Source: a virus (lineage: Duplodnaviria > Caudoviricetes). From it: 64,000 nucleotides of DNA. The stretch spans positions 607-64,606 of IMG/VR virus record IMGVR_UViG_3300042562_000678; one strand, 5' to 3'. The notes below the pieces were generated by a model. That model was not told where the DNA came from, ran no database searches, and was given only the letters and a program-made list of their open reading frames with translations. A program made the translations under genes and the position numbers. Positions within the stretch are counted from its first letter, which is position 1, and each line of letters starts with the position of its first letter. Shown piece by piece: positions 14,605 through 62,172 of this stretch.

Positions 14605-14827
14605 GAAGGGGCAGGGGTTTTTTGTCCCCTGCCTTGATCTAGACGCTACCCGCGAAGAGGGCTTGCGCAAAGCCCTTCACTACCGCCTGTTTGATGCCCG
14701 TGCCGAACCCTGTGTTCGGGACGGGTTTACTGGCGTGTGGTTCTTTCGGATTGTTTATAAAACCGCTCCGCAATCTTGTTCTCAAAGCGCTTCAAGCGAT
14801 CCAGGCGCTCGTCCTTCTGAGCCGTAG
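14564..14827 (+). CDS. small conserved protein (YPW..L..G.GFFVPC)
   Basis: ATG14564; YPWARLEKGQGFFVPC...GVWFFR; 3' end overlaps the giant gene in antisense. Confidence 0.6.
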   Translation: MKKLRINYPWARLEKGQGFFVPCLDLDATREEGLRKALHYRLFDARAEPCVRDGFTGVWFFRIVYKTAPQSCSQSASSDPGARPSEP

Positions 14828-24176: not shown

Positions 24177-24178
24177 TG

Positions 24179-25888
<1,710 letters not shown>

Positions 25889-25897
25889 GAATGTTCC

Positions 25898-27526
25898 TTA
25901 CGCCATTTTGGAGAGTGCCAGCTCAGCCAGACCTGCCGGGCGCTTGTCGGCTTTAACTTTGCCGCCCTTTTTCATACCTGCCATTCTGGCCATACCGTAG
26001 CCCGCCATGCCCAGACCTGCTAACTGCGACACGTTGCTGGGGGCCGCTTGGTACATGTTGGTGCTGGTGGACTGCATCGGGAGGCCGCGCAGCATGTTGC
26101 TCATAAAGGCCAACTGCTGCTGAGGGTACTGCTGCGCCATGGCGTAGTTCTGAATCTGCTGGTTCAAGATGGCTTGCTGCTGAGCCTGCTGCTGAGCGCC
26201 CAACTGATTTTGCAAATTGATGTTGCCAACCTGTTGGCCGTACTGCGTCTGGCCCAACTGGCCCAACTGACCAGCGGCTTGCAGCCCTGTTTGCAACCCT
26301 TGCATGCCGTAGCCTGCGCCAAACTGGCGAGACTGCTCCCCGGCTTGCTGCCCAGCCAAACCGTACTGTGCTTTTAGTTGCGCAGCATTCATGCCTTGGC
26401 CCGCGCCAAACTGTCGGGACTGTTCACGCATCTGTTGCGCGTTCATGCCTTGCTGCTGGTTGGCCAGTTGTGCCTGGAGGTTTTGCCCAGAACCAAGCCC
26501 TTGGGTTTGCAGACGTGAAGCCAGATTTTGCTGGCCGACATTGAACCCCATGCCTTGATTGGCCAACTGCGCTTGCAAGTTCTGTCCCGCGCCCAATTGC
26601 TGTATGCCTAGTTGAGCGCCAAGATTTTGCTGACCCACAGTGAGACCTGCGCCTTGGTTGGCCAACTGTGCTTGCAGCCGTGCGTTTTGCTCAGCGTTGA
26701 ACTGCTGCTGCGCATTTTGGAACGCGGCGTTCTGCCCTTGTGCTTGGATGTCGCCTTTCTGGGTGGCCAAGTTACGAGCGGCTTCAGCTTCCATCAACCC
26801 TGCACGGGAGCCACCAAATGCGCCAGAACGAACGGCTTGGCCAGCACGCTGGGTGCCTGCAATATCGGCTTGGCGCTGGGCTTCGCGTTGCTGGATGTCC
26901 ACTACATTTTGCATGTAGGGGTTCATGTATTGGCTGGCAGTTCCCGGCTGGTTAAAGCTGTCCGCGCTGACACGCTCGGCAGGCCCCATCTGGTATTGCT
27001 GCAACTGAGGCGCGTTTACATCTGCCGGGCCTTGCATTTGCAGGTCTTGCAACTGGGGGGCACTGACTTGTTGCGCACCAAAGCTCCCTGTTTGGTACTC
27101 TTGAGGCGCTTGGAACTGATTATCAAACTGCCCTGCTTGGTAGTTTGCCCCCATGGCGCGCTGTCCGGCCAAGCCTGCCAGACCAGACGCCGTATCCAAT
27201 TGAGGCGAAGTGCCCATATTGGCCGCGCCCCTGAACGCCTGCTCCTGCATGGGGCTGAACCCTGCAACGTACTTGGACGGGTCTTCGCTGAACGGCGTGT
27301 AGCCTTTTAAGCTGCTGGCGTATTTCTGCCCCGTGGTCGGGTCTGTCTCGTAGTTGTACAACTGCTGCTGGGTTGTGCCAAGCATCGTCTCTACATACGG
27401 ACGCGCATATTCAGGGATGTTTGTGTTGGACACAGTGGTTTGCGTAGGCGGAGGAGCGCCACCACCCCCGCCCATATACAGGCGCGGGCCCATGAAAAAG
27501 TCGAGTATGTCGGTAAATTTGAACAT
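25898..27526 (-). CDS. putative DNA ejection/pilot protein (P22 gp7-like position)
   Basis: Leader MFKFTDILDFFMGPRLY then GGGGG; Gln/Gly/Ala-rich repeats QAQLANQ and EQSRQFGAG; GAFGGSR motif. Confidence 0.65.
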   Translation of the reverse strand: MFKFTDILDFFMGPRLYMGGGGGAPPPTQTTVSNTNIPEYARPYVETMLGTTQQQLYNYETDPTTGQKYASSLKGYTPFSEDPSKYVAGFSPMQEQAFRGAANMGTSPQLDTASGLAGLAGQRAMGANYQAGQFDNQFQAPQEYQTGSFGAQQVSAPQLQDLQMQGPADVNAPQLQQYQMGPAERVSADSFNQPGTASQYMNPYMQNVVDIQQREAQRQADIAGTQRAGQAVRSGAFGGSRAGLMEAEAARNLATQKGDIQAQGQNAAFQNAQQQFNAEQNARLQAQLANQGAGLTVGQQNLGAQLGIQQLGAGQNLQAQLANQGMGFNVGQQNLASRLQTQGLGSGQNLQAQLANQQQGMNAQQMREQSRQFGAGQGMNAAQLKAQYGLAGQQAGEQSRQFGAGYGMQGLQTGLQAAGQLGQLGQTQYGQQVGNINLQNQLGAQQQAQQQAILNQQIQNYAMAQQYPQQQLAFMSNMLRGLPMQSTSTNMYQAAPSNVSQLAGLGMAGYGMARMAGMKKGGKVKADKRPAGLAELALSKMA

Positions 27527-27536
27527 CACAATGCCC

Positions 27537-27950
27537 TCATATTTTTGTTTCAACCACGGTATAACGCCGTGTAAATCCCTGGCTCTCCAAGAGACGCACC
27601 ATTGCTGGACGCCCTCCGGCTTGGATTTTGGTAGCACCCATGCCGCGCAACACTGCTTTTAACTGGTCCAGTACTGGCTCGTTGACAATCCCGGTACCCC
27701 CGGCGCTGGTCACAAACGCCACCCGATCATTGGGGTAGTTTTGAAAAGCAATTGTCATCGCCCCGTTAACTTGACTGTCTTCGTCAGTGGCCACTAACAA
27801 AGTCCAGTGCCCCAGCGTGACGTACATCTTGATCTGCTCAAGCGAGTAGTCATCCCCGCCAAACTTTTCTGTTGCAGCGATGAATTTCTCCACCAGCGGC
27901 CAAGTCTGGGCAGCGTACTGTTGCGGAACATGCTGGACAGTGAGCGTCAT
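27537..27950 (-). CDS. GNAT-like virion assembly protein
   Basis: Size, position (like P22 gp14 or T7 gp13) and pattern GATKIQAGGR...GF. Confidence 0.55.
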   Translation of the reverse strand: MTLTVQHVPQQYAAQTWPLVEKFIAATEKFGGDDYSLEQIKMYVTLGHWTLLVATDEDSQVNGAMTIAFQNYPNDRVAFVTSAGGTGIVNEPVLDQLKAVLRGMGATKIQAGGRPAMVRLLESQGFTRRYTVVETKI

Positions 27951-29116
27951 GCTGGCATGTACTTGGTCGGGTTGATCTGCTTGGCTTGCGACTTTTTGCC
28001 TGTCCTGGCGGCGCGAACCCTGTCCATCATCTTGTACAACTGCTTGGCCCCAGCGTCCGATGAGCCGTTACCCAAGCCCGACACCACATCGGCGGGAACC
28101 ACAAACTCGTCGTTGGCCAACCGGGCGGGTTGCTTGCCTGCAATGGTGGCAGGAATGCTGTCACTCATACCGTCGCCTGGGCCTTTGAGCATGCGTCCGC
28201 CACGAGCGTAGTCCGCGTAACCGCCCAGATCGGCCAAGCCCCCGCCCGCCATACCGGGCCGGGCAACCATCTTCGTGCCAGCTTCAGCGTCATACCGATC
28301 GGGGTCGTAGCTCAAGGGGGGAGTTGCGTACTTATCTTGCTGCTGTCTGTTTAGCAGACGTTCTAAATCAGCACCAAAACCTTTACCAACTGCCCCTAAA
28401 AACCCGCCGTCCGCCATGTTGCGGTAGTCTTTGTACACCGGGGTGTAGGGGGTGGGGGGCTTGACTTCAAGCGGCTTGTAGCGGTCTGGGTCGTACTTTA
28501 GCTTGTTCAATGGGCCGTCATACGGTTCTTGGCCGGGATAAGGACTCTTGCGGTCTGCCAGCATTGCCGCAGCCGCCAGGGGAATGCCGTATTTTGCTAC
28601 GGGGTTGAGCCCGCCGTACCAGTTAGCGGCGGAGTTTGCCATGCCTGCAATACCACTAGGAGCGGCGGGAGCCGCCATACTGGGAACCATTGCAGCCTGC
28701 TGTCCCACATACGGGGTAGCTATTCCAGACCCAATGGCATCAACACCAGCAGCACCAGCGGCGGGAAGGGCGCTAGCCGCAGCGGCGGGAGCGGCGGGGG
28801 CCAAACTTGCAAGTCCCGCCAATTGAGACGCCTCAACTGATCCAGCAGCAGCGGCAGCAGCCTGAGCCGGTGTTAACGCAGAGGCAGCTAAATACGCGCT
28901 GTCGGCAGCAAGTGCTCCAGCCGCAGTCCCAGCACCAGCAGCCCCGGCTCCCGCGCCCGCCGTCCCTGCTCCAGCAAGCGTCTCCCCACCAAGAGTTCCG
29001 CCAGAAAAGTACAAGGCAGTCGCTGCCGCGATCAACGGTGCGTTCTTAGACAGACCTAAATCTTTGTCAAGGTTGGCAAGGTCTTTGCCGGGGTCGAATC
29101 CGCCACCACCGCTCAT
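27947..29116 (-). CDS. putative internal virion protein
   Basis: Ala/Gly-rich N-terminus; conserved GPGDGMSDSIPA...ARLANDEFVVPADVVS. Confidence 0.7.
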   Translation of the reverse strand: MSGGGGFDPGKDLANLDKDLGLSKNAPLIAAATALYFSGGTLGGETLAGAGTAGAGAGAAGAGTAAGALAADSAYLAASALTPAQAAAAAAGSVEASQLAGLASLAPAAPAAAASALPAAGAAGVDAIGSGIATPYVGQQAAMVPSMAAPAAPSGIAGMANSAANWYGGLNPVAKYGIPLAAAAMLADRKSPYPGQEPYDGPLNKLKYDPDRYKPLEVKPPTPYTPVYKDYRNMADGGFLGAVGKGFGADLERLLNRQQQDKYATPPLSYDPDRYDAEAGTKMVARPGMAGGGLADLGGYADYARGGRMLKGPGDGMSDSIPATIAGKQPARLANDEFVVPADVVSGLGNGSSDAGAKQLYKMMDRVRAARTGKKSQAKQINPTKYMPA

Positions 29117-41024: not shown

Positions 41025-41447
41025 TTAAACAAGTCGAATGAGTGCCGATGTGCTTGTGTTTGCAGGCATCGTCACGGTGAAAGTGTTGACAGACGTTTTG
41101 TTACTGCCGAAGTCCAAAACGCACACAGCGCCGTTGGCCCCTGCCTTGTAAATCAAAGCGCCCCTGGCAGTGATTACGCCCGTCCAAGACGGCGAAGAAA
41201 AGTTGATGAACACAATGCTGCCAGAAGACGCCAACTCAGTGCCAATCGTTGCAGTAACCACGGACCCCGTTGGCGAGTAATTGCCCCCAGATGATTCACC
41301 GTCCGTAGTGTACGCGGTGGTATTCTGGTCAAGTGTGGCGGCATTGGTATACAGCGCCAGACGAAACGTGTCTGTCGCAAAATTGATCGTGCCGTTTGCC
41401 AGCCCCGAACGAAGCGTGTTGCAACTGTAGTTGCCCGTGAACGCCAT
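41025..41447 (-). CDS. structural protein
   Basis: TFRLALYT...TARGALIY...VLDFG. Confidence 0.7.
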   Translation of the reverse strand: MAFTGNYSCNTLRSGLANGTINFATDTFRLALYTNAATLDQNTTAYTTDGESSGGNYSPTGSVVTATIGTELASSGSIVFINFSSPSWTGVITARGALIYKAGANGAVCVLDFGSNKTSVNTFTVTMPANTSTSALIRLV

Positions 41448-42193
41448 CAGCGAACCCCACTATTCTGGGGCAGAGGCGACTGGCGATACTGCCCACTGCG
41501 GTACGCATCGCTGCGCTCCAGCCCATCGCCCAGACGCTGTGCCAATGCAAGTGCTTCCTTGTATTTGCCGTCATACAAAGCGATCAAGTCTTGCTCACCC
41601 TTCATGAAGGTGTACGCCTCAACCAAAGACCCATACAACAGCACACTGTCAAAGTTGTCACCAAGCCACGTTTGGCCAGAAGCCGCCGTGGTGATGGAAG
41701 TTGGGTAGTAGTAATAGTGCAACTCAACGTCATATACCGCATCTGGCGTGGGGCCGAGGATAAATGACAACTCGTTGGTGATTACAGGAGACGCCTCGTT
41801 TGTGGTTGTTGGTCCAAACAATGCGTAGTACTTGGGGGTTGCTGTGTCGGTGGCTTTGGGGTACGCCTGCCGGATGAAGTTCACGTCCTTGTTGAGCAAA
41901 AACTCTTGCCCATCAGCGGTTATGACCGCCAACGAAAACGTGGAAAGAAAGTCTATCGGGCACGACAAATACTTGTTGCCCGTGGACGTTAACCCCGTCA
42001 CGTTTTTACGCAGTGATGGGAATTGAACCGAGTTGTATATACGCTGTTCCGCTTGCGTGATGAAAGTGTTAATCTGTGTCGTTGCAGACACAGTACTCCC
42101 CACCGTTGCCGGAGGTACAGGGGCCAGATATACATCGGGAAACTGGTTCTCCGTGTACGTCTGAATTGTGTTATACAACTCGGTGTAGTTCAT
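41447..42193 (-). CDS. head-tail adaptor / tubular protein A-like
   Basis: FITQAEQRIY, PKYYA, GPTPD..Y.VELHY, LLYGSLVEA. Confidence 0.7.
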   Translation of the reverse strand: MNYTELYNTIQTYTENQFPDVYLAPVPPATVGSTVSATTQINTFITQAEQRIYNSVQFPSLRKNVTGLTSTGNKYLSCPIDFLSTFSLAVITADGQEFLLNKDVNFIRQAYPKATDTATPKYYALFGPTTTNEASPVITNELSFILGPTPDAVYDVELHYYYYPTSITTAASGQTWLGDNFDSVLLYGSLVEAYTFMKGEQDLIALYDGKYKEALALAQRLGDGLERSDAYRSGQYRQSPLPQNSGVR

Positions 42194-42391: not shown

Positions 42392-42583
42392 TCAGCCTCC
42401 ACGGCCAGGGCTGCGCTGGTTCATGACCTTGGCCATGTTGCGCCCGTATTTGAGCATGTCGCCGTTGGTCTTGCCGCCAGCCTTAAGCTTGGTCATTGGC
42501 TTGCCAGGGTGCATCTTTTTCTCATGCTTATGCACCGCGCCTGCGATCATCTTCTTGTCTTGTGCCAAGTCTTTCTTGTCCAT
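42392..42583 (-). CDS. small basic protein
   Basis: AAGGAG SD; HKHEKKMH, LKAGGK. Confidence 0.6.
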   Translation of the reverse strand: MDKKDLAQDKKMIAGAVHKHEKKMHPGKPMTKLKAGGKTNGDMLKYGRNMAKVMNQRSPGRGG

Positions 42584-42593
42584 CTTCGACTCC

Positions 42594-43022
42594 TTATGTC
42601 GTTGCTACCGTAACTGTACCCAATTGCACGTTCAAAACCAAGTTATTTGGTGTCAAAGCGGCATCAAAAAATTCTGAACCCCCGACAGGTGTCCAGCCCC
42701 ACTGAAAAATCCTGCTGCCCCCGCTGAGAATCCCCTGCGCATCAGCCGCCGAACTGTTGGTCAACACGATCTGCAAACCTGTTCGGCCAGACACTTTGTA
42801 GCTGATGTCGGGCCGGGGGTCTCTAATCCCTTGCGGGTCATCCACCGGGTACATGCCCAGTTGCAACTGCGGCTGATCCGGGTCCCAACACTGGGGGCAC
42901 ACCTTGAGATCATATACCTTGGTCTTGACAACTTCTTTGCGCAGCGTGGTTAATTTGAAGCGAAACCCGCAACGGTCGCACTCCGCAATTGAATTCTTGC
43001 CAGACGCAAACCTGTTACCCAT
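42594..43022 (-). CDS. Zn-finger-containing conserved protein
   Basis: ASGK...CDRCG...CPQCWDPDQPQ. Confidence 0.7.
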   Translation of the reverse strand: MGNRFASGKNSIAECDRCGFRFKLTTLRKEVVKTKVYDLKVCPQCWDPDQPQLQLGMYPVDDPQGIRDPRPDISYKVSGRTGLQIVLTNSSAADAQGILSGGSRIFQWGWTPVGGSEFFDAALTPNNLVLNVQLGTVTVATT

Positions 43023-43963
43023 TAAGTGCCGCCCCCAATGAACATCTGCCTGGGCACAAGCCGCAGCGCTGCACGTTCTTGGTCTTCATCCGCAGCCGTC
43101 ATCCAGGCTTCGTCGTACTGTTGTTTGAGCACGCCCAGGCGCTCCATGCCACCGGGCACTTTGAGCGCAATGTAGTAGGCCAGACCTGCTGCCATGCAAG
43201 GAACAAACCGGAAGGGCACATCCATGACGTTCACGCCACCGCCAGCATCCTGCACCCGGCGCATGCGCCAATACACAAACTGGTAGGTCTGAGAGCCGTC
43301 AGGTGTGGGCCACACAGTGACACGGGGGGCGTTGTTGACACGGATGGGGTTGCCCGCCGCAGGGGTCTGCTGGGTCGTGCCGATCTGTGCACGAAACACG
43401 TTACTAAGGGTATTCCCCGAGATGTAGTTGTAAAACACCGTCTCGGTGCCGCCAGCAGTCACGATGTCCACATAGCCAATGGCGGGGAGCCCGACAACGG
43501 AGCTCAACGTGATCGTTGCCGCAGTCAAATCTTGGGACACAAACGTCGAAGCGGTGGTGGCCACCTGCCCGTCCAAGCGCTGATACCAGACCTGGATGGG
43601 CCGAGCTTGGTTAAGTTTGTTGGGGATGGTTGCGTAGGTGGACACGCTGATGCGTGTGATGGTCAAGTCCGCTTGGTTGGACAGGATGTTGGCATTGGTG
43701 CGGATTACATGGTCGAGCAAATCCACGGTGTCGTTTGGTACGGCGTAGGTGTTCAGCCCTTGTGTCAGGGTGATCGTCCCCTGCTCAAACGTCCACATGT
43801 TGACGCCGCGGTTGGCCCAGTCAGCAAACAGTAAGTTCAGGGATCGACGCGCTGTTCGCAGGTCATACCCCGTGCGCATCTCTGAACCCGCACGTTCAAA
43901 TGCCTCCTCGACCAACTCGGTGAGGTCGAGGTTAAAGCCTGATTGTCCAGAGGTGACTGCCAT
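43022..43963 (-). CDS. tail/neck adaptor protein
   Basis: EEAFERAG, ARRSLNLLFADWANRG.N.WT, VWPTPD, PFRFVPCM.AGLAYY. Confidence 0.7.
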   Translation of the reverse strand: MAVTSGQSGFNLDLTELVEEAFERAGSEMRTGYDLRTARRSLNLLFADWANRGVNMWTFEQGTITLTQGLNTYAVPNDTVDLLDHVIRTNANILSNQADLTITRISVSTYATIPNKLNQARPIQVWYQRLDGQVATTASTFVSQDLTAATITLSSVVGLPAIGYVDIVTAGGTETVFYNYISGNTLSNVFRAQIGTTQQTPAAGNPIRVNNAPRVTVWPTPDGSQTYQFVYWRMRRVQDAGGGVNVMDVPFRFVPCMAAGLAYYIALKVPGGMERLGVLKQQYDEAWMTAADEDQERAALRLVPRQMFIGGGT

Positions 43964-43964
43964 A

Positions 43965-45017
43965 TCAGTAGAACTCGTCCATCATTTGGGGAACAGCTTG
44001 CTGCCCACCAAACCCTCCACGCCGCCCTTGCAACATCGACGCCAAGCCTTGCAGCCCCATTTGCCCACCGTAGCCACCGCCCATGCGGCCACCATAACCG
44101 CCGCCGTAGCCACCACGACCGCCGCCGTAGCCACCGCCACCACCGTATCCGCCACGACCGCCGCCGTATCCGCCACGACCGCCAAAATCAGGCATGCCCA
44201 TCCTGTTGTCTATGCGGGGGCCGGGAAGCTGCCGTTGCATAAAGTCACCAATACCGATTTCTGAAGCCACCTGCTCTGAGCCGGGTTGCTGTGGCATTAC
44301 CGCAGCCCGCATGTCACCTTGGGTAGCTTGGTCTCGCTGCATCTGGTACATGTCCTGTTGGGTAGCCTGCTCGTACATCCGCTGTTGCCGAGCTTGGTCT
44401 TGCATGTTCCGCTGTTGCTGCATCTGGTCAATGTTGCCGTATGGGTTTTGCCCCATCTGTCCTTGTTGTCCTTGCGGCTGTTGGAACCCGCGCAGCTTGC
44501 CCTGCAAGTCTTGCAACTGCTGGTACATGGGCGCTTTCTGCATGTACTCGTTCATCTGACGACCAAGGTCTTGCTCCTGCTTCTGGTACGCCTGGAAGTC
44601 CGGGTTGTTCATGTACGAGGGCTGCTGGCCCATTGGTTGCGGCATCTGGTTGGGAGCGCCAAGTTGTCCCATTTGCTCCCCGACCTCGCGCCCCATTGAG
44701 CGATAGTCTTGCTGTTGCCCCATTTGTTGCTGCTGCTGAAACTGATTCATCCCATAGCCGGGACTGGACAGGGCCCCCATCCCACCAAACGGGTTTTGCA
44801 TCTGTTGCATGCCATACGGCTGTTGTTGCTGCATGCCAAACGGCTGGGGCTGCGCAGACGCGTTGCCCATACCCCCGCCTTGGTTCTGAGAACCAAAGTT
44901 GGACATGTACGGTTGCGCGTAGGAGGGGACACCCCCGCCCGGCTGCGCCGATGCGTTGCCCATGGGTTGTTGCCCCATGCCGCCTGAACCGCCTACACTT
45001 CCTGCTCCGCCTGCCAT
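43965..45017 (-). CDS. Gln/Met/Gly-rich low-complexity protein with RGG/YGG tail
   Basis: 350-aa ORF that fits exactly between its neighbours (TAATG coupling). Confidence 0.7.
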   Translation of the reverse strand: MAGGAGSVGGSGGMGQQPMGNASAQPGGGVPSYAQPYMSNFGSQNQGGGMGNASAQPQPFGMQQQQPYGMQQMQNPFGGMGALSSPGYGMNQFQQQQQMGQQQDYRSMGREVGEQMGQLGAPNQMPQPMGQQPSYMNNPDFQAYQKQEQDLGRQMNEYMQKAPMYQQLQDLQGKLRGFQQPQGQQGQMGQNPYGNIDQMQQQRNMQDQARQQRMYEQATQQDMYQMQRDQATQGDMRAAVMPQQPGSEQVASEIGIGDFMQRQLPGPRIDNRMGMPDFGGRGGYGGGRGGYGGGGGYGGGRGGYGGGYGGRMGGGYGGQMGLQGLASMLQGRRGGFGGQQAVPQMMDEFY

Positions 45018-45250
45018 TATCGGTACCCCGCTGTTTTCTTCGCAATGCTTTTGGGTTGCGCCACAAACTGTTTACCTGCCGCTTTACCCGCCCGCTTGGC
45101 CTTGGTAGTGGCAGCGTACTCAGAAGGACTGAGCGCCTTGATTGCCGCTTCTGGCAAATACCGCTCCCCCGTCTTTGACGAAGGCTTCCCCGACTTGGTG
45201 CGCCACTTCTGATCGCCCCAGTTTTTAAGGGAAGTCTGCGGTGCTTTCAT
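45017..45250 (-). CDS. DUF5872-like protein, C-terminal half
   Basis: SLKNW..QKWRTK...ERYLP...KQFV. Confidence 0.6.
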   Translation of the reverse strand: MKAPQTSLKNWGDQKWRTKSGKPSSKTGERYLPEAAIKALSPSEYAATTKAKRAGKAAGKQFVAQPKSIAKKTAGYR

Positions 45251-45372
45251 TCAAAGTCTTCAGCGGTCAAACCAGCATCTTCAAGTGCCAACTCTTCTAA
45301 AATTTCGTCCGTGCCACAAGTGCAAGGGCCATCTTCCATCACGGCGCAATCGTCCATATGTCTTTTAATCAC
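45247..45372 (-). CDS. small Cys/His acidic protein
   Basis: GGAGGAGG SD before GTG; HMDDC...CTCG. Confidence 0.5.
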   Translation of the reverse strand: MIKRHMDDCAVMEDGPCTCGTDEILEELALEDAGLTAEDFE

Positions 45373-45640
45373 GATAACCTCCTCCAGCCGCCTTGTATTT
45401 CTTGGCGACAAGTTGTGCTTTACGGGCTGACCATTGCCCCGCGCCCGTGCCATGAGTTGCTGCGGCTTTTACCTGAGACACAATTCGCTTGCGCAAACTG
45501 GGCTTGGTGTAATTGCCAGCGGCATTGACTTTCCCGCCTTCTTTGTACTGCTTGAAGTCGGTGTCGTCACGGCGTTCTTTTCGAACGCCCTTGGGCATTT
45601 TGGATGGGCTGATGTCGCCCATCCCGCGTGAGGCCATCAT
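45365..45640 (-). CDS. DUF5872-like protein, N-terminal half
   Basis: NYTKPSLRKRI...GQWSARKAQLVAKKYKAAGGGY. Confidence 0.6.
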   Translation of the reverse strand: MMASRGMGDISPSKMPKGVRKERRDDTDFKQYKEGGKVNAAGNYTKPSLRKRIVSQVKAAATHGTGAGQWSARKAQLVAKKYKAAGGGYRD

Positions 45641-45641
45641 C

Positions 45642-46007
45642 TCAGCACTTGCCGCCAGACTTCATGCCCAGGGGCTTGGAGCCAGCCATCTTGACCATGG
45701 TGCCCTTGGTCTTGCCTTTGGTGGCAATGCCGTCACGGCTGGGTGCGCCAGTCTTGACGCTGCCCATTTTGGCGGTGGTGATGCCACCAGACGCCATTTT
45801 CTTCGTGCTCATTGCTTTTTTCTTAGCAATCATTTCCATGAAAGGGTTCGCTTTAGCCATATCACCACCTCTTTTAAAAGACTTGCCTTTGTCGGCGTTG
45901 CTGAAATCTTTGCCCACAGACTGCGGGACTCCTACCTTCTTGGCAAACGATGGGTTGTTGGCCACCGCAGCCATGAAATTGTGCTGTTTCTTACTTGTTG
46001 ACGGCAT
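45642..46007 (-). CDS. small basic protein
   Basis: MPSTSKKQHNFMAAVA...; DGIATKGKTKG; three xxGG motifs. Confidence 0.65.
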   Translation of the reverse strand: MPSTSKKQHNFMAAVANNPSFAKKVGVPQSVGKDFSNADKGKSFKRGGDMAKANPFMEMIAKKKAMSTKKMASGGITTAKMGSVKTGAPSRDGIATKGKTKGTMVKMAGSKPLGMKSGGKC

Positions 46008-46179
46008 CTTTATACGCCCACCGTTGTACGGTATCCGTTTCCCAGATGCGGATAACCATCCATACGATGGTCAACACGCCGCCAATAAGCGTTACCACGG
46101 GCGTCATCCACCCTAAGAAACCCCCAAGGCCCATTACTACGGCAGCGCCGTCAGCCATTGTTTTTACGTCATGGTTCAT
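45991..46179 (-). CDS. small membrane protein (holin-like)
   Basis: Two hydrophobic stretches then IRIWETDTV. Confidence 0.6.
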   Translation of the reverse strand: MNHDVKTMADGAAVVMGLGGFLGWMTPVVTLIGGVLTIVWMVIRIWETDTVQRWAYKDAVNK

Positions 46180-46180
46180 G

Positions 46181-46435
46181 TCAACACTTCCAAGCCCGCA
46201 GGCTCTTGTTAATCCGACTGTTTGGGTCTTTGGCTGTTTTTTCGGATGTGAGTTTTTTCTTCATCCCAGTCATCCTTGCACAGAAAGAGTCGCGCCTGCT
46301 GCCGCCCTCTGGCTGCGGTGCTTTCAACCCCGGCTTGCCGGGATTGGCCTTGTTGTAGGAAGCCCGACCCTTGGCGTTCAAGCCGCCCTTCTCGGATTTG
46401 CCTTCCTTGCGTTGCCATGCTGGAGATTTAGCCAT
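46181..46435 (-). CDS. small basic protein (DUF6321-like)
   Basis: AWQRKEGK..GGLNAKGR...SFCARM...SLRAWKC. Confidence 0.65.
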   Translation of the reverse strand: MAKSPAWQRKEGKSEKGGLNAKGRASYNKANPGKPGLKAPQPEGGSRRDSFCARMTGMKKKLTSEKTAKDPNSRINKSLRAWKC

Positions 46436-47531: not shown

Positions 47532-47560
47532 AATATACACCAAAAGAAAAAGGGGCACAA
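47532..47560 (-). promoter_or_regulatory. putative sigma70 promoter embedded in the terminator
   Basis: TTGTGC-17-TATATT on the minus strand. Confidence 0.5.
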
Positions 47561-47571
47561 GGCCCCTTTTT
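47542..47571 (-). terminator. intrinsic terminator after the major capsid gene (bidirectional type)
   Basis: Minus strand AAAAAGGGGC-CTTGT-GCCCCTTTTTCTTTT. Confidence 0.85.
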
Positions 47572-47581
47572 CATAGACACA

Positions 47582-48511
47582 TTAAGCGCCTGCGGAACCC
47601 CACATGCCGAGGGGATCAGACCAGCCGAAGCTGTAACGCTCACGAGCCTTGTAACGGACGTTGCCGGTATCAAAGTCGCCGTCCATCGAGTTAGCCAGGG
47701 GCATACGCTCGAAATGCTTCATGCCGTTGGGAACGTCGGTAATCAAATACCAGCCATTCGAATCGGTCAAGAAGTGGTTGACGCAGTAGCCTTCAGGAAT
47801 CGCACCCATCTGCTTGATAGCGTTGATGTCGTTATCAGCAGTAGAGACGCGCAGTTCAGTGTCAAGCAAACGCTTGGCAACGAACATCAGCGCTGGGGGG
47901 ATGACCATCTTGCGGGGCTTGGCAGCGATCAACAGACCACGCTCATCGGTCCATGCAGCGATTTGAATCACGGCATTTTCCAAGGAGGTCTCGTTCAAGT
48001 CCACGCCAGTGGTGGGGCTGTTGAAGTTAACAGCGCCATTAACCAAGGGGTGGCCAACACGAGTGCTGGAGCTGTTGTTACCGAACAAGGTCACGCCGTC
48101 ACCACCCAAGTACGAACCGTTGAAACCGTTGTTGATAACGGAGGCGGCTTTAACTTGCTTGGTGTAGGACATCGCACGGGCCAGGGCTTTGGTGTAACGA
48201 GCAGACAAGGAGTCATACAAGTTATCTTCCACAGCTTCCTCGGTGATCGAGAAGCCCAGGGCGATGGTTTCGTGGTTGTAACGGGCGGTGAACGCTTCTT
48301 GTGCGTTGTCATACGCGATGGCGGAGCCCTCGTTCTTGACAGGAGCAGCACCGAAACCAGCAAGCTTGGTCTCTTCTTCGAAGCTACGCTCTGATTTCTC
48401 AGTTTCGTAGATTTCTTTGTGCTCTTCGCCGTAACGAGCGTATTCCAAACCGAACAAAGCGTTCAGACCAGGGAGCAACTCTTTAAGTAGTTGTGCGCGT
48501 GAAATTGCCAT
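47582..48511 (-). CDS. major capsid protein
   Basis: MAISRAQLLKELLPGLNALFG...GDFDTGNVRYKARERYSFGWSD; followed by a strong terminator; highly biased codon use. Confidence 0.88.
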   Translation of the reverse strand: MAISRAQLLKELLPGLNALFGLEYARYGEEHKEIYETEKSERSFEEETKLAGFGAAPVKNEGSAIAYDNAQEAFTARYNHETIALGFSITEEAVEDNLYDSLSARYTKALARAMSYTKQVKAASVINNGFNGSYLGGDGVTLFGNNSSSTRVGHPLVNGAVNFNSPTTGVDLNETSLENAVIQIAAWTDERGLLIAAKPRKMVIPPALMFVAKRLLDTELRVSTADNDINAIKQMGAIPEGYCVNHFLTDSNGWYLITDVPNGMKHFERMPLANSMDGDFDTGNVRYKARERYSFGWSDPLGMWGSAGA

Positions 48512-51019: not shown

Positions 51020-51206
51020 CGGATTTTTCAACTTTCTCTGCAAGGTCAATGATGTAACGCTCTGCGATGGCCAGACCCTGGATGACCCCGCAAAGTTTTT
51101 GGTACTCTTCAAAAGTGCGGCACGAACCCCCCGCGCAGTCATCTGCGTAGTTGTTCATGTCGGTGCGTATTTGTTCGCGCAATACGCGTGCGAAATCTTG
51201 AATCAT
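51012..51206 (-). CDS. small conserved protein after the portal gene
   Basis: FEEYQKLCGVIQGL motif; coupled to the portal gene. Confidence 0.65.
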   Translation of the reverse strand: MIQDFARVLREQIRTDMNNYADDCAGGSCRTFEEYQKLCGVIQGLAIAERYIIDLAEKVEKSDE

Positions 51207-53716
51207 GCTTTAGGGTTTTCCTTTCGTGGTCGGTTTTCTCTGCGCTTAGCCAACTGTTCGTCAACCCGCAGCAGGGCATCCCCCATCCTTTGCTGGTTGT
51301 TGAACTGTTGTTCTTTTTGGGACATCTGGAACTTGCCCGCGTTTTCTGCCGCTTGGAGTGCCTGATCTTCTTTGTCCATTCTGTACTTGCCGACCTTGGC
51401 CATGGCGTCCATTTGCAGTTTCTTTTCCTCGATGGCCAGCTTGCCGGTAACTTCCTTGTCCTTGATCTGCGTTTCTTGCTGCTTGATCTGCACTTCTTGC
51501 TGGCGAATTTGCAAATCTTGCTGCTGCATCTTTAGCACGGGGTCTTGCGCTTGCTGCTGGGCTTGCTGCTGCTGGGCTTGCTGTTGGTTTTGCTGGAGCA
51601 CTTGCTGTGCAGCTTGCGCCATCATCCCTGACAGAGCCACCTCGATCTGCGGGGGCAGCTTCTCGTCTGCCGGGGGCAGGGGCATACCAAGCTGCTGCTC
51701 GATCTTCTGGCGATAACCAAACCCGACGTGCTCAGCGATGTGCGCCTGCATGGCCGCTTGAATCTGCGGTGCCTTGGGGTTTTGGCCAATCAACTGCATG
51801 ACGATGGGGTCTTGCATGGCCATCGTGTGCACCTTGATGTGGGACTCGTGGTCTTGGTAGAAGAACGCCTTGAGCGGCTCCAACTTAAGCGCGGCCATGT
51901 TCTCAGACACGGGGTCTTTGGGCTTTTGGTCGTCAGGCAGGGGCACGAGCTTGTCTGCGTCCTTGATGCCCAACACCTCCAGCATCTGGCGGTGCAACTG
52001 GGGCAAGTCGTAGATGTCCGGGGCCATCTGTGCCATCTGGATGACTGCTTGGTACTGCACAACCCGCTGGCTCATGGTGGCCGCGTTGGGGTCGCTCACC
52101 GGGATGATGTCAACGTGGTTGTAGTCCTCTTGCTTGGCGCGTCGTGTGGACTTGTCTGGGTCATAGTCGTACTCGGGGTCTGTGTAGTCCCGAATCAGCC
52201 CGGCCAGCAGTTGCAACTCTTGCTTGAAGCTGTAGTGCAACCGGGCCTGAACCGCGGACATCACCTTCAACTGACGCTCCAGCAGGGCCAGCGTGGTGCC
52301 CACAGGCGCTTGTGCGCTCATGTCTGACACCTTCATATCCGCTGTGGCGGCAAACCGTCTGCCTTCCTCCACGATGGTGCCCAGCAACTGGTACAAAACG
52401 CCGCTTGGCTCCTTGTACGGCAGGGGCAGGATGTTGTCGCGCAGCGCCCCAGAGCCAATGTCTACGTCCCTGAACTCGCCGGGTTGAATCGGTGTGTCAT
52501 CACCCTTAATGCGAAGTCCACGAGATTTGAGGCCTCCTGGGAGGTTCGACAGCGTTCCTGCATCGACAAGCTGACGCATGATGCTGGTGGCTGACTTGGC
52601 AAACCCGCCGATGAGGTGGAAGAGGCCAAAGCCGTAAGCCCCAAAGCCTGGGATGTATTGGTAGTGGACAAAGTGCTGTCGCTTGAGTCGGAGTTCATCG
52701 TCTTCCTTCCAGTTGCGGCGGATGGCCAACACCTCGTTGGTCCCTTTTATTAGGGTAACTACGTATGGCAGAGCAATGCCAGTTTCTTCTCCGTCACCGT
52801 CTTTGTCTTCGTAGCCGTTCAAGTCCAGGTCAACGTGGCACTCAAAGATGATGTAGCGCTCGTCGTTCAGGTCACTGAACCCGGTCTCCTTGTCCTTGGC
52901 TTTCTGGATGTTGGTCTGCTCCCTGGACGCATCAGGCAACTCAACGTCACGATAGAACCCAGCTTTCTGGAGCTTGACAATCTCGTTCTTGGTCTTGCGC
53001 ATCACATGGGTGACGCGGTAGCAGGTGTCCAAGTCCGTGGCCCCGTAGGGCAGGATGATGTCTTCTGCGGGGATGAACATCGACACCTGACGCCCCAGGC
53101 TGGGGTCGTAGTACACCTTCTTGAACGCGCTACCAGTAGCGGGCAGGCTCCACAGCATGCGCTCATGCTCAGGCCGGAACTCACGCATCACTTCTGTCAG
53201 CTCGTAGTTCATGTCGAACTCGACACGCATAGCGGCTTCTTGTTTCTGCGGGGTCTGCTTGCCCAGAATTTTGGTACGCACCGGGCCTTGGGCCGGGAAG
53301 GTCTCCGTGATCGTCTCAGACTGGAAGCGCACAACCGCCTCGGTAATCATCGGGTGGAACACGCCAGACGCGCCGTTCCAAGGTTCTGTGCGCTCCTCGT
53401 ACTGGAGGCCCAGCAGCTTCAGCCCTTCTGTGTAGGCTTTCTCCCAGTCCTTGCGGGAGTTCTTGTCGTTCTCGATGTCTCCTGCCAAGTCCCCGGCCAG
53501 GGTCTCCAAGGCAGACTGGTCCATCTCCTCGGCCAAGTTGTCATTGAATGTGTCGTCTTCTTCGTCGCCTGGGCGGATGGACACCTCCAAGTCCCCGGCG
53601 TGGATGTTGACTTCCTCGGGGTCGATGATCTCAATCTCGATCGGCTCTTCTTGCTCTCCCAGTTCGTCGATGCCCTGGGGCTGTTGGTAAAGCGCTTTGT
53701 CGATATTGGTTGCCAT
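51203..53716 (-). CDS. portal protein (P22-like, long C-terminal barrel)
   Basis: 837 aa after TerL; GSAFKKVYYD, LVDAGTLSN, Gln-rich coiled-coil C-terminus. Confidence 0.88.
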   Translation of the reverse strand: MATNIDKALYQQPQGIDELGEQEEPIEIEIIDPEEVNIHAGDLEVSIRPGDEEDDTFNDNLAEEMDQSALETLAGDLAGDIENDKNSRKDWEKAYTEGLKLLGLQYEERTEPWNGASGVFHPMITEAVVRFQSETITETFPAQGPVRTKILGKQTPQKQEAAMRVEFDMNYELTEVMREFRPEHERMLWSLPATGSAFKKVYYDPSLGRQVSMFIPAEDIILPYGATDLDTCYRVTHVMRKTKNEIVKLQKAGFYRDVELPDASREQTNIQKAKDKETGFSDLNDERYIIFECHVDLDLNGYEDKDGDGEETGIALPYVVTLIKGTNEVLAIRRNWKEDDELRLKRQHFVHYQYIPGFGAYGFGLFHLIGGFAKSATSIMRQLVDAGTLSNLPGGLKSRGLRIKGDDTPIQPGEFRDVDIGSGALRDNILPLPYKEPSGVLYQLLGTIVEEGRRFAATADMKVSDMSAQAPVGTTLALLERQLKVMSAVQARLHYSFKQELQLLAGLIRDYTDPEYDYDPDKSTRRAKQEDYNHVDIIPVSDPNAATMSQRVVQYQAVIQMAQMAPDIYDLPQLHRQMLEVLGIKDADKLVPLPDDQKPKDPVSENMAALKLEPLKAFFYQDHESHIKVHTMAMQDPIVMQLIGQNPKAPQIQAAMQAHIAEHVGFGYRQKIEQQLGMPLPPADEKLPPQIEVALSGMMAQAAQQVLQQNQQQAQQQQAQQQAQDPVLKMQQQDLQIRQQEVQIKQQETQIKDKEVTGKLAIEEKKLQMDAMAKVGKYRMDKEDQALQAAENAGKFQMSQKEQQFNNQQRMGDALLRVDEQLAKRRENRPRKENPKA

Positions 53717-53724
53717 GTCTGTCC

Positions 53725-55260
53725 TTAGTAATACGCCGCCTTACGGCGGAAGTAGATGGGGTCGTCTTTCTCGTCGGTGTCCAAACTGATGAACCCGCCT
53801 TGGCGAAACCGCAGCAACGCTTGGGAGGTCGTGTCCACGTAGTCGTCATTCTCGCCGTTGGGGAAGGATGCCACCTCCTCGATGACCTCCCTGGCCCAGC
53901 GTGTGTCTGGTGCCCAGACTGTACCTGAAGTGAACAAATCCGCAACCGCGTTCAGACGCACGATCTTGTCGTTGCCCCTGGAGGGGTTGGTCTCTTGCAC
54001 AGGTATGCCCATCCTGCGCAGCTCTTGTATCAACGGCGCTCCTGCGGCCTTCTTCTCCACGATGAACGCATCTGGCTCCCATTCCTTGTAGTGCTTGAGC
54101 GCAGTGGCCTTCAACTCAGGAAACTGCATCCGGTCTTTGAACGCATCCAGCAGTATGACCTGCGCGGCATCGTGCTCTTCCTCGTTGTAGAACACCCCCC
54201 AGGTTGTGCACGCCGAATAGTCAGCGCTGGTCTTGGCTTCAAACGCAGTGTCCCAGGACTGGATGATGTACTCACAGGAGGGCGGCTCTTCGCCCTCCCA
54301 GATGCGCCAGTTCTTTCTGGAGATGATGGCCGCGTTGTCGCTGGTGGGCTGCTGCATGTACTGCGCGTTCCAATACTGGGGGTCGATCGACGCTTTGGCC
54401 GACTTCAACGCAGCCAGGGGCCACTGCTCTGGCCACAGGGACTTCTCGTCGTCCGTGCCTTCGTTCAGTATGGCGGGCAGCTCCACGATCTCCCAGGGCG
54501 GCGCTTCGGGGTTCTTGGTCTGGTAGTCGATCAGCCGCCCGGTCAGGTCCAATTTGCCCCAGCGGGTCATCACCACAATGATTCCGCCCCCTGGCATCAA
54601 GCGCTGGAGGGGTCCGGTCTGGAACCAACTCCACGCCGTGTCAAACGCTAGACGACTGTTGGCTTTTACGTCTTGTTCCGAGTGAGGGTCATCAATAACG
54701 AACAGATCGGCACCACGGCCAGCCAGAGCACCACCGACACCAGCAGCGTAATACTGACCCCCAGCGCCAGTACCCCATTTTCCAGCAGCTTTTTGGTCAT
54801 CGGCAACAACAGTGTGGGGGAAAAGCTCACGGTAATCCTCGCTTGCGATCAAGTTGCGGACCTTGCGGCCAAAGTCTTCGGACAAAGACGCGGTGTGCGT
54901 CCCCATGATGATCTTCTTATTAGGGTATTTACCTAGAAAGTACGCTGGGAACAGGTAAGAACTGAATTCTGACTTGCCCATACGGGGGGCAATGTTGATG
55001 ATGACCCGGTTTTTGCGCCCCTCGATCACATCGGTGAAGATTTTGGCCAGTTTCCTGTGGTGTGGACCTACTTTAAACCCCGGATAGACCCGCTGGGCGA
55101 ACGGAATCATGTCTTGGCGTGCTGCGGCCACCCCATAGCGCTTCTCGCGCTCCTCCAGCATGTCAAACAGCTCCATCTTCTCCTTGATAGAAAGAGTCGG
55201 GAGCGCCTTTTGAATGGCGGCAACCTCAGTTGGGGAGAGCGTCAGGTCGTTGAGCTTCAT
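53725..55260 (-). CDS. terL: terminase large subunit
   Basis: APRMGKSE Walker A, IDDPH, MTRW, SWDTA, EKKAAG, DDYVD. Confidence 0.95.
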   Translation of the reverse strand: MKLNDLTLSPTEVAAIQKALPTLSIKEKMELFDMLEEREKRYGVAAARQDMIPFAQRVYPGFKVGPHHRKLAKIFTDVIEGRKNRVIINIAPRMGKSEFSSYLFPAYFLGKYPNKKIIMGTHTASLSEDFGRKVRNLIASEDYRELFPHTVVADDQKAAGKWGTGAGGQYYAAGVGGALAGRGADLFVIDDPHSEQDVKANSRLAFDTAWSWFQTGPLQRLMPGGGIIVVMTRWGKLDLTGRLIDYQTKNPEAPPWEIVELPAILNEGTDDEKSLWPEQWPLAALKSAKASIDPQYWNAQYMQQPTSDNAAIISRKNWRIWEGEEPPSCEYIIQSWDTAFEAKTSADYSACTTWGVFYNEEEHDAAQVILLDAFKDRMQFPELKATALKHYKEWEPDAFIVEKKAAGAPLIQELRRMGIPVQETNPSRGNDKIVRLNAVADLFTSGTVWAPDTRWAREVIEEVASFPNGENDDYVDTTSQALLRFRQGGFISLDTDEKDDPIYFRRKAAYY

Positions 55261-60300: not shown

Positions 60301-62172
60301 ATGAGAATCTATCACGCAACATTTACTTTCGTTAACGATGATCTTGACGCAACAAACGTCAACCACATCAAGCACCGCCATGTGTTCGTAGCCGAAGCTT
60401 TCAACACTCGTGTGTGGCTTGCCATCAAGGGCGTATCCAACGCCTGTCTGTTCAACAACCCGAACACCTGCTTCGTTGAAGCAACGCGCAGTGCAGGCAT
60501 TGAGTCCCCGTGGCTCAGTCGCTCTTACTCTGATATGAATTCAGTCTTGTCACTCACCAGCATAGACGAGGCTATGCAGTCCATGATCGACAACAACACA
60601 TGGAGCGTTGCGTTTGACGAGGCGTCATATGTCGTGGAGCCGCTGACTGGGGCTGAGCGTGCATGGTTCAACTACGAGGGGTATGCGGTGCAACAAAGAC
60701 TGCTTGGCTTGCTGGACTCTCCGTTCTACGGACGCAAGTCCGCGCTGATTGGCGCACGACTAGATCGCATCAGACGCAACGCACGCATCAAGCTGGGGCT
60801 AGATCGTGCACGGGAAACCACGGCGTACTACAAGGGTGTGCGCATTGACGCGCAAAGATTCGTGTATATGCGTAGCACTTTCAAGCAGTTGGGCGCTAAG
60901 GTGCGCGAAGCAATCAAAGACCAGGATGCTGGCGATTTCGATGATTGGTTTGCAGACACCGTCACGGGCTACCACATGGAGCGCATGATTGAAGCGTTTC
61001 CTGCTATTGAGTCAGCGCTGAGTGACGCAGGTGTCATGACCAACCTGGAGCAAACCTACTGCGATCATGTGGTGCCCGCGCACGAGACTGTTGAGGTGCG
61101 CGATGGTGGGCGTATGCGTACATGGTGTGCGGCGTGCCGTGACGACCGCGCAGTATGGGTCGAAGACCAGGAAGAGTACTGGCAGTCAGACGATGCTATG
61201 TGGTCTGAGCGTGAGGACGCGTACTACTCATACGACCGCGACTCCGAGTTGGCAGAGAACGATGATGACGATGACGACTACACCGCTGCGGAGGAACCCA
61301 ATCGCTTGATGAGCTACATGACTGTGGTCACAGACTTTGTGGCAAGGGACACGAGCTTCACGCCGTCTCCGTTCGGTGACCTACTCATAGGCATCGAGCT
61401 TGAGATGGCAACATCGGGGAGCGTAGGCTCAGCGGTTGAGCTTGTGCGCGGCGCACTGGGCGAAGACTACTGCGTATGCAAGTCCGATGGTTCGCTGCCC
61501 CCTGGCGGCTTCGAGGTCGTGACTGCACCACGCAAACTAGACGAGCACATCACGCGCTTTAGCAACTGGTTCGGCGAAGGCATACCAGCGCAGTTTTCTG
61601 CCTGGGATATAGGTTCTTGCGGTATGCACATCCACATCGACTCTCGTGCCTTCACGGCAATGACGCTGGGCAAATTCCTCATGCTCATCAACTCCAACAC
61701 CAATGTGGACTTCATTCGCCGTATCGCTGGTCGCCACCCCTCTGTGGACAAGCAAGCGCGTGAGTACTGCGCGGCAGAAGAGCAAGACATCCTCGACAAC
61801 CCCAAGCACGCTATCAAGAGCAAGAGCACACGCCGCTACCGCATGGTCAACACGACCTGCTTGAAGCGTTCCGAGGCTGACCGCTTGGGTGTGCAGTATG
61901 TCGGTGAGCGCAGCTTCAACACCATCGAGCTTCGCATCTTCCGCTCGTCTCTCAAGCGTGAGCGCATATTGGCGCAGATCGAGTTCACCCATGCCGCTGT
62001 CATGTTCTGCCGTGTCGCAAGCTACCGCGACCTTGACTACTCGAGCTTCATCAAGTGGTTGCGTACCACCAACAACACCTATCCCAACCTTGCCGACTGG
62101 TATGGCGTGCGCCGCCGTGCTACCGCCAAGAATTCAGCACCCGCTGAGTTGCTGTGTGTTGACCGCGTTTAA
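60301..62172 (+). CDS. putative amidoligase (glutamine synthetase-like COOH-NH2 ligase)
   Basis: IGIELE, KSDGSL, GFEVVT, CGMHIH, RY..VN, TIELRIF. Confidence 0.85.
   Translation: MRIYHATFTFVNDDLDATNVNHIKHRHVFVAEAFNTRVWLAIKGVSNACLFNNPNTCFVEATRSAGIESPWLSRSYSDMNSVLSLTSIDEAMQSMIDNNTWSVAFDEASYVVEPLTGAERAWFNYEGYAVQQRLLGLLDSPFYGRKSALIGARLDRIRRNARIKLGLDRARETTAYYKGVRIDAQRFVYMRSTFKQLGAKVREAIKDQDAGDFDDWFADTVTGYHMERMIEAFPAIESALSDAGVMTNLEQTYCDHVVPAHETVEVRDGGRMRTWCAACRDDRAVWVEDQEEYWQSDDAMWSEREDAYYSYDRDSELAENDDDDDDYTAAEEPNRLMSYMTVVTDFVARDTSFTPSPFGDLLIGIELEMATSGSVGSAVELVRGALGEDYCVCKSDGSLPPGGFEVVTAPRKLDEHITRFSNWFGEGIPAQFSAWDIGSCGMHIHIDSRAFTAMTLGKFLMLINSNTNVDFIRRIAGRHPSVDKQAREYCAAEEQDILDNPKHAIKSKSTRRYRMVNTTCLKRSEADRLGVQYVGERSFNTIELRIFRSSLKRERILAQIEFTHAAVMFCRVASYRDLDYSSFIKWLRTTNNTYPNLADWYGVRRRATAKNSAPAELLCVDRV

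Follow-up and report, generated by a model that had tools for sequence, protein, structure and literature searches.

A predicted disordered, glycine- and glutamine-rich protein with a conserved helical core, encoded in the late module of an uncultured lake-water podophage

The open reading frame at 43965–45017 and its product

We analyzed a 64,000-nucleotide stretch of viral DNA, hereafter the window (positions 607 to 64,606 of IMG/VR record IMGVR_UViG_3300042562_000678, a genome represented by a single 64,606-bp contig), and focused on the open reading frame (ORF) at 43965–45017. A preliminary description of this ORF, made from the letters alone, had given no strand; we located it on the minus strand, where it encodes a protein of 350 amino acids plus stop (P0001) and where all parts of the protein described below also lie. 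It is a real late gene, carried by a short-tailed, uncultured phage from lake water. The coordinates given for it were exact, and the composition count bears out a protein dominated by Gln, Met, Gly and Pro with spaced Tyr and Phe: Gly 79 (22.6%), Gln 73 (20.9%), Met 35 (10.0%), Pro 23 (6.6%), Tyr 19, Phe 10, Arg 18, Lys 3, Asp 13 and Glu 8, with no Cys, Trp or His. The net charge is zero. Charged residues begin at aa 104, so the protein opens with an uncharged run of 103 residues that is Gly/Gln-rich, carries spaced Tyr and Phe, and holds just 4% Ser and 10% Met. At 3.46 bits, the entropy of the whole sequence is the lowest among the module proteins of at least 100 aa.

Along its length the protein falls into five parts. 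A variable N-terminal arm (aa 1–130; 44628–45017), rich in Gly, Gln, Met and Pro with spaced Tyr and Phe, contains the octapeptide MGNASAQP twice, starting at aa 19 and aa 50 (44940–44963 and 44847–44870), which confirms a duplication reported earlier. The arm leads into a conserved core (aa 131–177; 44487–44627) made of a helix, an invariant Ala-Pro-Met and a further helix, supported by alignment, model confidence and the divergence at its sites. A long predicted helix rich in Gln, Asp and Arg follows (aa 196–238; 44304–44432) and is absent from several of the 21 relatives that were aligned. The RGG/YGG tract (aa 279–318; 44064–44183) comprises four RGG and six YGG within aa 281–318, and includes the 40-residue Gly/Arg/Tyr string quoted in the preliminary description; its length and presence differ among relatives, and the underlying DNA consists of degenerate tandem repeats with units of 9–24 nt (44056–44184). 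The C-terminal conserved motif (aa 320–350; 43968–44060) combines a short helix (GLQGLASMLQG), RRGGF and the tip MMDEFY.

The aromatic residues of the protein are spread more regularly than shuffling would give (z = −2.7). In the 91 relatives that reach 250 aa, z averages −2.5, and 0.49 adjacent aromatic pairs occur where 2.85 are expected; these relatives are not independent samples, and repeats alone can give regular spacing. Even spacing of this kind is the pattern that would be expected of a sticker-and-spacer sequence.

Structure prediction by AlphaFold2 with a 21-sequence alignment gave a mean predicted local distance difference test score (pLDDT) of 49, with 233 of the 350 residues below 50 and values of about 40 in the N-terminal arm. 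With low AlphaFold2 confidence as the sole proxy for disorder, the protein is predicted to be mostly disordered. Helices were modeled at residues 134–161 and 164–176 (pLDDT 76–83), 196–238 (66–83) and 323–328, and the first two coincide with a short helical center that had been proposed earlier and whose quoted sequence is present. Folded alone, the core reached a mean pLDDT of 76 as two helices divided at the invariant Ala-Pro-Met. It may be a hairpin or a kinked helix, and we do not call it a hairpin because the fold searches gave only generic long helices and coiled coils: these made up all matches of a VIA-align comparison of the core with 48,161 chains (best Z 4.5), and Foldseek with the core model found no match in PDB. 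The whole protein matched no Pfam family at E ≤ 0.01 and no PHROGs family, and the core and the Gln-rich helix gave only sub-threshold noise against Pfam. Against PDB sequences, the core as a single sequence matched nothing and as a profile gave one chance-level match (E 0.65). In the ESM Atlas there was no usable feature match, the structural rows having template-modeling (TM) scores of at most 0.30, and when Foldseek compared the full model with BFVD, the lowest E was 0.05 and no TM score exceeded 0.15.

Family, gene order and selection

A word-indexed database search returned 81 proteins (E ≤ 1e-3) whose names were all uninformative, and about 100 unique relatives of 191–461 aa were gathered, all metagenomic or from uncultured viruses. 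The core motif Y-[MV]-[QK]-K-A-P-M was present in 100 unique sequences. When a profile of the core was searched against 1.84 billion representatives, 62 clusters were found, of which 49 reached E ≤ 1e-10; among the weak ones, at least two were rejected as tetratricopeptide repeat false positives. No match was found in 50,697 phage records searched by tblastn with the whole sequence and with a 50-aa core, with the low-complexity filter on. Among cultured phages, those closest by capsid similarity are Planktothrix phage Pag-Yong1 with its near-identical records, DSL-LC04, and HMO-2011-type pelagiphages, and no relative of the protein was found in Pag-Yong1, DSL-LC04 or the HMO-2011-type phages. 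When core patterns were run over 185,579 prokaryotic species, each represented by one genome, they matched 45 times; no match was confirmed, and neither a prophage copy nor a clue to the host emerged. Judged by this distribution, the protein founds an unannotated, previously undescribed family confined to its phage lineage. Among lake-water DNA runs, 14 hold at least 86% of the words sampled from the region of the gene, and ten of these may represent the sample from which the contig came. Four metatranscriptome runs gave contigs with at least 88% likeness that cover the capsid and Lys-rich genes; on the gene itself they touch only the Gly/Arg/Tyr repeats (43937–44203), with loose ends resembling cross-matches, and are uninformative on its transcription either way.

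In IMG/VR, 32 loci encode a relative, and a core-bearing ORF is present in every one. The gene order around it is kept. Directly upstream lies a 77-aa Lys-rich gene (phrog_14910; 45017–45250, minus strand), whose TAA overlaps the ATG of our ORF, and directly downstream a 313-aa SU10_adaptor-like gene (43022–43963, minus strand; E 3e-7), whose ATG stands one base past the TGA. Both neighbors occur in 27 of the 32 viral loci; four of the other five are cut by the contig end, and the fifth (L013) is without the upstream gene. Counted over loci with sufficient room, the adaptor-like gene is downstream at a distance of at most 29 nt in 31 of 31, and the Lys-rich gene is directly upstream in 27 of 28.

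We compared the gene and its flanks with nine of these loci. The ratio of non-synonymous to synonymous substitution rates (dN/dS) was 0.19–0.39 for our ORF and 0.01–0.21 for the flanking genes; its alignments contained 75–141 gap columns, every one of them in frame, and it was 63–84% identical over aligned columns where the adaptor-like protein was 95–98% identical. By these comparisons it is the fastest-changing gene of its neighborhood, chiefly through insertions and deletions (indels) in repeats. Long ORFs also overlap it in other frames (44428–45066 on the minus strand and 44441–45178 on the plus strand), as might be expected if the frame were a chance opening or a mis-called gene in G+C-rich repetitive DNA. 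That explanation is highly improbable: the frame is kept across about 100 relatives of very different length despite many indels, purifying selection acts on it, and its junctions with both neighbors are tight. A frame that stays open through so many gap columns, the dN/dS values and the 81 matches are together more than chance would give. The ORF is a genuine gene under selection in conserved synteny.

Selection is unevenly distributed over the protein. In an alignment of 21 of 82 sequences, 19 columns were invariant, all of them inside aa 133–177, and the C-terminal motif GLQGL-x-SMLQGRRGG formed a second conserved element. Over 27 unique ORFs, the core had a non-synonymous divergence (pN) of 0–0.21 and a synonymous divergence (pS) of 0.13–1.1; the constraint thus acts on the protein, since synonymous sites vary freely and non-synonymous divergence is low. 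The same freedom of synonymous sites ruled out an RNA or DNA element as the cause of the conservation. The preliminary description had treated the helical center as a minor part, and in this it has to be corrected: it is the core and the short motifs near the C-terminus that are under the strongest selection. The arms of low complexity turn over mainly by in-frame indels while their composition and aromatic spacing persist, the means over 100 relatives being Gly 19.2 ± 4.0%, Gln 18.5 ± 2.7%, Met 8.4 ± 1.3%, Pro 9.3 ± 2.2%, Tyr 4.7%, Phe 4.4%, Arg 4.8% and Lys 1.3%. An RGG/YGG tail had been described earlier. It is real in the window protein, but three or more RGG/GGR occur in only 46 of 100 relatives, so that, to judge from these sequences, the tract is optional and not a family trait.

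The C-terminal tails of the 100 unique relatives form discrete classes, namely RRGGPFGGY, RRGGF, MMDEFY (nine relatives, the window protein included), a Pro-rich class ending in GF, NF or PF, MK[KN]GGKV (16 relatives) and two others; the final residue is Phe or Tyr in 58. The selected parts, a small helical core and short tails, suggest docking on a phage partner.

Relation to the presumed ejection proteins and possible roles

The minus strand of the window has the layout of a typical podophage late module. The large terminase gene (53725–55260) and the portal gene (51203–53716) are followed, in the order of transcription, by a GroES-like gene, three unnamed genes and the major capsid protein gene (47582–48511), then by a 192-aa gene, an island of small genes, our ORF and two SU10_adaptor-like genes, the second at 41447–42193 (E 1e-19). 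Downstream come fibre genes and an endolysin gene, large unannotated proteins (29116–24179) and a 3149-aa protein. A morphogenesis setting beside small Lys-rich proteins, as described earlier, was thus recovered in the terminase, portal, capsid and adaptor-like genes and in neighbors with 13–21% Lys.

The large unannotated proteins of this module are presumed to be ejection proteins, and one of them is linked to our protein by fusion. The ORF at 27947–29116 (minus strand; P0133) encodes a 389-aa Ala/Gly-rich protein whose orthologue carries the core of our family in two metagenome loci. One such fusion, P0109, has 784 aa with the core in mid-protein, and its cluster has three members, every one of them on record from a single contig; its last 90–105 aa or so are 56–63% identical to the C-terminus of the 389-aa protein. 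At loci L114 and L115 the P0109 fusion occupies the slot of the 389-aa gene, between homologues of a 153-aa protein and of a 137-aa or the 579-aa protein. A second fusion, P0132, has another domain order and matches the 389-aa protein at 69% identity over its final 90 aa. Scans seeded with the N-terminal, core and C-terminal patterns of P0109 confirmed 326 relatives in IMG/VR and 537 in metagenomes. Among the 75 viral loci that the fusion protein picked up, none contained a core-bearing ORF; the fused form was recovered by the metagenome scan only.

The 389-aa protein ends in a domain of some 90 residues that is strongly conserved. The protein belongs to no Pfam or PHROG family, and its counterparts in cultured phages are annotated variously as 'extracellular solute-binding protein', 'calcium-binding protein' and 'tail length tape measure protein'. 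The domain occurs in the Pag-Yong1 gene just after the needle-head gene and in a gene of Caulobacter phage GB2A upstream of a 'lytic tail protein'. Short-tailed phages keep their ejection proteins at such positions.

A short motif is also shared between the two regions. KxGGK occurs four times in the module of the window (in p121K, p91K, p63K and p579), with 0.33 expected and a maximum of three in 200 shuffles, and the looser form [YFML][AKR]xGGx[VLMI] occurs seven times against 0.9 expected, including the 389-, 569- and 579-aa proteins. The last of these, a Gln/Ala/Gly-rich repeat protein (25898–27637, minus strand), has a Gly-rich tail with MKKGGKV near its C-terminus, the motif with which 16 of the 100 relatives of our protein also end. 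Motifs of this type lie in the ORFs at 25898–27637, 27947–29116, 24179–25888, 45365–46007 and 42392–42583, which encode otherwise unrelated low-complexity or Lys-rich proteins, and they recur in the syntenic low-complexity proteins of Pag-Yong1. The motif may be a portable docking or loading tag.

Our preferred interpretation, which we hold tentatively, is that the protein is a disordered, virion-associated protein tethered through its core, probably together with internal or ejected cargo. We favor it because the gene is selected and syntenic, predicted disorder is combined with a small docking element, the core is found fused to a presumed ejection protein, and a tail motif is shared. The protein is modular, with a fast-changing, uncharged N-terminal arm of prion-like composition, a near-invariant core, an optional Gln-rich helix, a slippage-prone RGG/YGG tract, and a C-terminal helix and tip. 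Its core and C-terminal motif would dock onto a conserved phage partner in the head interior, in the portal-neck region or among the ejection proteins, and its low-complexity arms would make up a flexible mass that coheres with itself and sticks to nucleic acids; this mass would be packaged along with the DNA and, being unfolded, could leave through the tail channel. The virion location, the docking, the co-ejection and the cohesive or condensate-like behavior are all steps that we infer.

Such cargo has a precedent in phage SU10, where gp20–24 are described as present in the virion, lost upon genome release and not resolved in the map (PMC9509320); their behavior suggests that unfolded, compositionally odd proteins can travel in a phage head. 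We translated gp21 and gp22 and found them Gln/Asn-rich with Gly-rich tails. Like our gene, the SU10 ejection proteins are encoded in the structural module; unlike them, our gene stands between head and neck genes, and there is no sequence similarity, the likeness of gp21 and gp22 being to the 579-aa protein and in composition only. The phiRIO-1 paper offers a framework for internal virion proteins, and the portions of it available to us hold nothing on low-complexity proteins (PMC4819975).

Several observations weigh against this interpretation. The fusion is rare: among the fetched loci, only two of the 141 ORFs with the C-terminal motif of the 389-aa protein carry the core, and a rare fusion need not mean physical contact. 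The window protein itself is without the KGGKV tail and ends in MMDEFY. The ORFs at 24179–29116 are presumed to encode ejection proteins from their position and composition, with no Pfam or PHROG match, and a phmmer comparison of SU10 gp20, gp21 and gp22 with the module proteins of the window gave no match at E ≤ 10. The gene lies between head and neck genes and outside the canonical slot downstream of the tail genes; some 15 kb separate it from the presumed ejection block (taken here to span 14727–29116), within which the core occurs only as a fusion. In the marine phages HMO-2011 and HTVC033P, homologues of the Lys-rich proteins adjoin lysis genes, outside the structural operons, which weakens the argument from neighborhood.

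Functionally, though by analogy only, the layout recalls bacterial single-stranded DNA-binding protein (SSB), in which a disordered linker rich in Gly, Gln and Pro leads to a short tip, acidic and aromatic, through which partners are bound. Our protein has a long Gly/Gln/Pro-rich stretch of predicted disorder and a short conserved tip (MMDEFY); it differs in having no OB fold or other Pfam domain. A further comparison is with predicted phage prion-like domains. Of the 370,617 phage proteins surveyed by Tetz and Tetz (2017), 5040 (1.35%) are reported to have such a domain, and most of these serve attachment, penetration or ejection (PMC5694896). Our protein resembles these as a phage protein of prion-like composition, and differs from them in being near-wholly low-complexity, where they are single domains on folded proteins, and in belonging to an unannotated family with no cultured member.

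The preliminary description went further and read the composition as FUS/TAF15-like grammar, with a condensate, amyloid or nucleic-acid-packing role; such roles are what the composition would suggest. The grammar holds for composition and aromatic patterning, both conserved in the family, and fails as homology. As in the FET proteins (FUS, EWS and TAF15), an uncharged low-complexity region, arguably of their Gly/Gln/Tyr type, is combined with RGG/YGG repeats, and aromatic and arginine 'stickers' are spread between Gly/Gln spacers. In contrast to them, the phage protein has no sequence homology, no RNA recognition motif (RRM; Pfam, E ≤ 0.01), no zinc finger and no Cys; it is rich in Met and Pro and poor in Ser, its RGG tract is dispensable in the family, and it has a helix-Pro-helix core that FET proteins are without. 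Condensate behavior would be plausible. Under such a reading the protein could be made late, stay unpackaged and act in the cytoplasm as a condensate scaffold or assembly factor, its core oligomerizing and its Tyr/Phe/Arg arms phase-separating so as to concentrate capsid, neck or DNA components. The sticker-and-spacer composition, the even aromatics and a composition kept despite turnover agree with this, as do a layout of one small helical element with long disordered arms, core fold matches (Z ≤ 4.5) whose closest representatives are generic coiled-coil helices of oligomeric complexes, and the reports of phase separation in phage infection that have begun to appear (PMC13401047, PMC11077065). 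The proposal is nonetheless doubtful: about half of the relatives have a short RGG tract or none, repeats alone give even spacing in relatives that are not independent samples, and the module already has a typical scaffold candidate, a charged 319-aa gene two ORFs before the capsid gene (Glu, Gln, Lys and Asp each 9–10%, Lys plus Arg 15%, Asp plus Glu 19%). We regard as unlikely the related possibility of a FUS-like condensate scaffold within the particle-building program, in which a helical hub would multimerize or dock while arms tuned in their aromatic and arginine content formed a cohesive phase with the genome or with packaged Lys-rich proteins; that phase might lie inside the capsid, at the portal or in a cellular assembly compartment, and selection would act on composition and sticker spacing, not on sequence.

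Translational coupling to the adjoining adaptor-like gene invites another explanation, an external 'brush' or whisker of the neck or head in which the core binds the adaptor-like protein and the variable arms face the environment or the host surface. The gene does diverge far faster than its flanks, with a variability comparable to that of fibre genes, and its C-terminal tails come in discrete, interchangeable classes; yet the overall dN/dS stays below 0.4 with no sign of diversifying selection, turnover is mainly through repeat indels, and no fibre- or whisker-type fold or motif was found in Pfam, PHROGs, or Foldseek searches of BFVD and PDB, which makes a brush improbable. We give similarly little weight to a host-directed factor, injected or not, that would belong to the mobile island of small Lys-rich genes (46435–45017) and act on host nucleic-acid machinery. 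Our gene is the last of that basic-protein island, whose homologues in HMO-2011 and HTVC033P are better conserved than the capsid and lie outside the structural operons, and RGG/YGG tracts bind nucleic acids in other systems. However, its family, unlike the island genes, was found only in this synteny, no relative turned up in cultured phages or in the genomes of the 185,579 prokaryotic species, and the net charge of the protein is zero.

Phase separation and prion-like behavior have barely been explored in phage biology. Phage prion-like domains have so far come from composition screens (PMC5694896), and condensates have so far been reported in only a few phage infections. The family offers a natural experiment, in that about 100 variants keep the composition, the aromatic spacing, the 47-residue helical core and a few short tails while the rest is reshuffled. 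If the protein is packaged, it would show how an uncharged polymer without a fold serves a phage within a pressurized capsid or at its opening; if it is not, it would be a candidate phage condensate scaffold. In either case the conserved core is a handle for finding its partner. Were the condensate-scaffold reading true, the protein would be a bacterial-virus counterpart of the low-complexity condensate proteins of eukaryotes. Beyond this family, the analysis draws attention to a larger group of low-complexity and Lys-rich proteins, all unannotated, of lake and marine podophages that have short tail motifs in common.

Neighboring genes and other features of the window

The island of small basic proteins upstream of our ORF (45017–46435, minus strand) encodes a DUF6321 protein of 84 aa and proteins of 121 aa, 91 aa (phrog_17747) and 77 aa (phrog_14910). 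The N-terminus of the 121-aa protein matches PHROGs annotated as virion structural proteins, and DUF6321 also matches the C-terminal ends of far larger PHROG families. Homologues of the island proteins in the marine phages HMO-2011 and HTVC033P are 74–78% identical (61–62% for the 91-aa protein), far closer than the capsid. Because they adjoin lysis genes there, the island may be mobile cargo and not part of the particle. Between the two SU10_adaptor-like paralogues lie a 142-aa gene and two small Lys-rich genes, an arrangement kept in related loci. The equivalent slot of Pag-Yong1 (L001, 7061–8475) holds a 308-aa protein rich in Ala, Pro, Arg and Gly, a 78-aa Pro/Lys-rich protein and an 83-aa Lys/Gly-rich protein; from these compositions, the slot seems to hold 'some disordered protein' and not one particular family.

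Directly after the major capsid gene is a strong terminator-like hairpin with an 11-bp stem and a T-run (47546–47572, minus strand). A hairpin at this place is the usual device for an excess of capsid mRNA over that of the downstream genes. The late module is closed, after the presumed ejection block, by the 3149-aa ORF (14727–24176, minus strand), which has an LPD38 polyvalent-protein domain near its C-terminus (E 1e-27) and no PHROG match. The plus strand encodes a 623-aa protein with an Amidoligase_2 domain (60301–62172) and a 964-aa DUF927 protein (11710–14604), and the early and replication side also includes a family A DNA polymerase, a PD-(D/E)XK nuclease and an SNF2 helicase.

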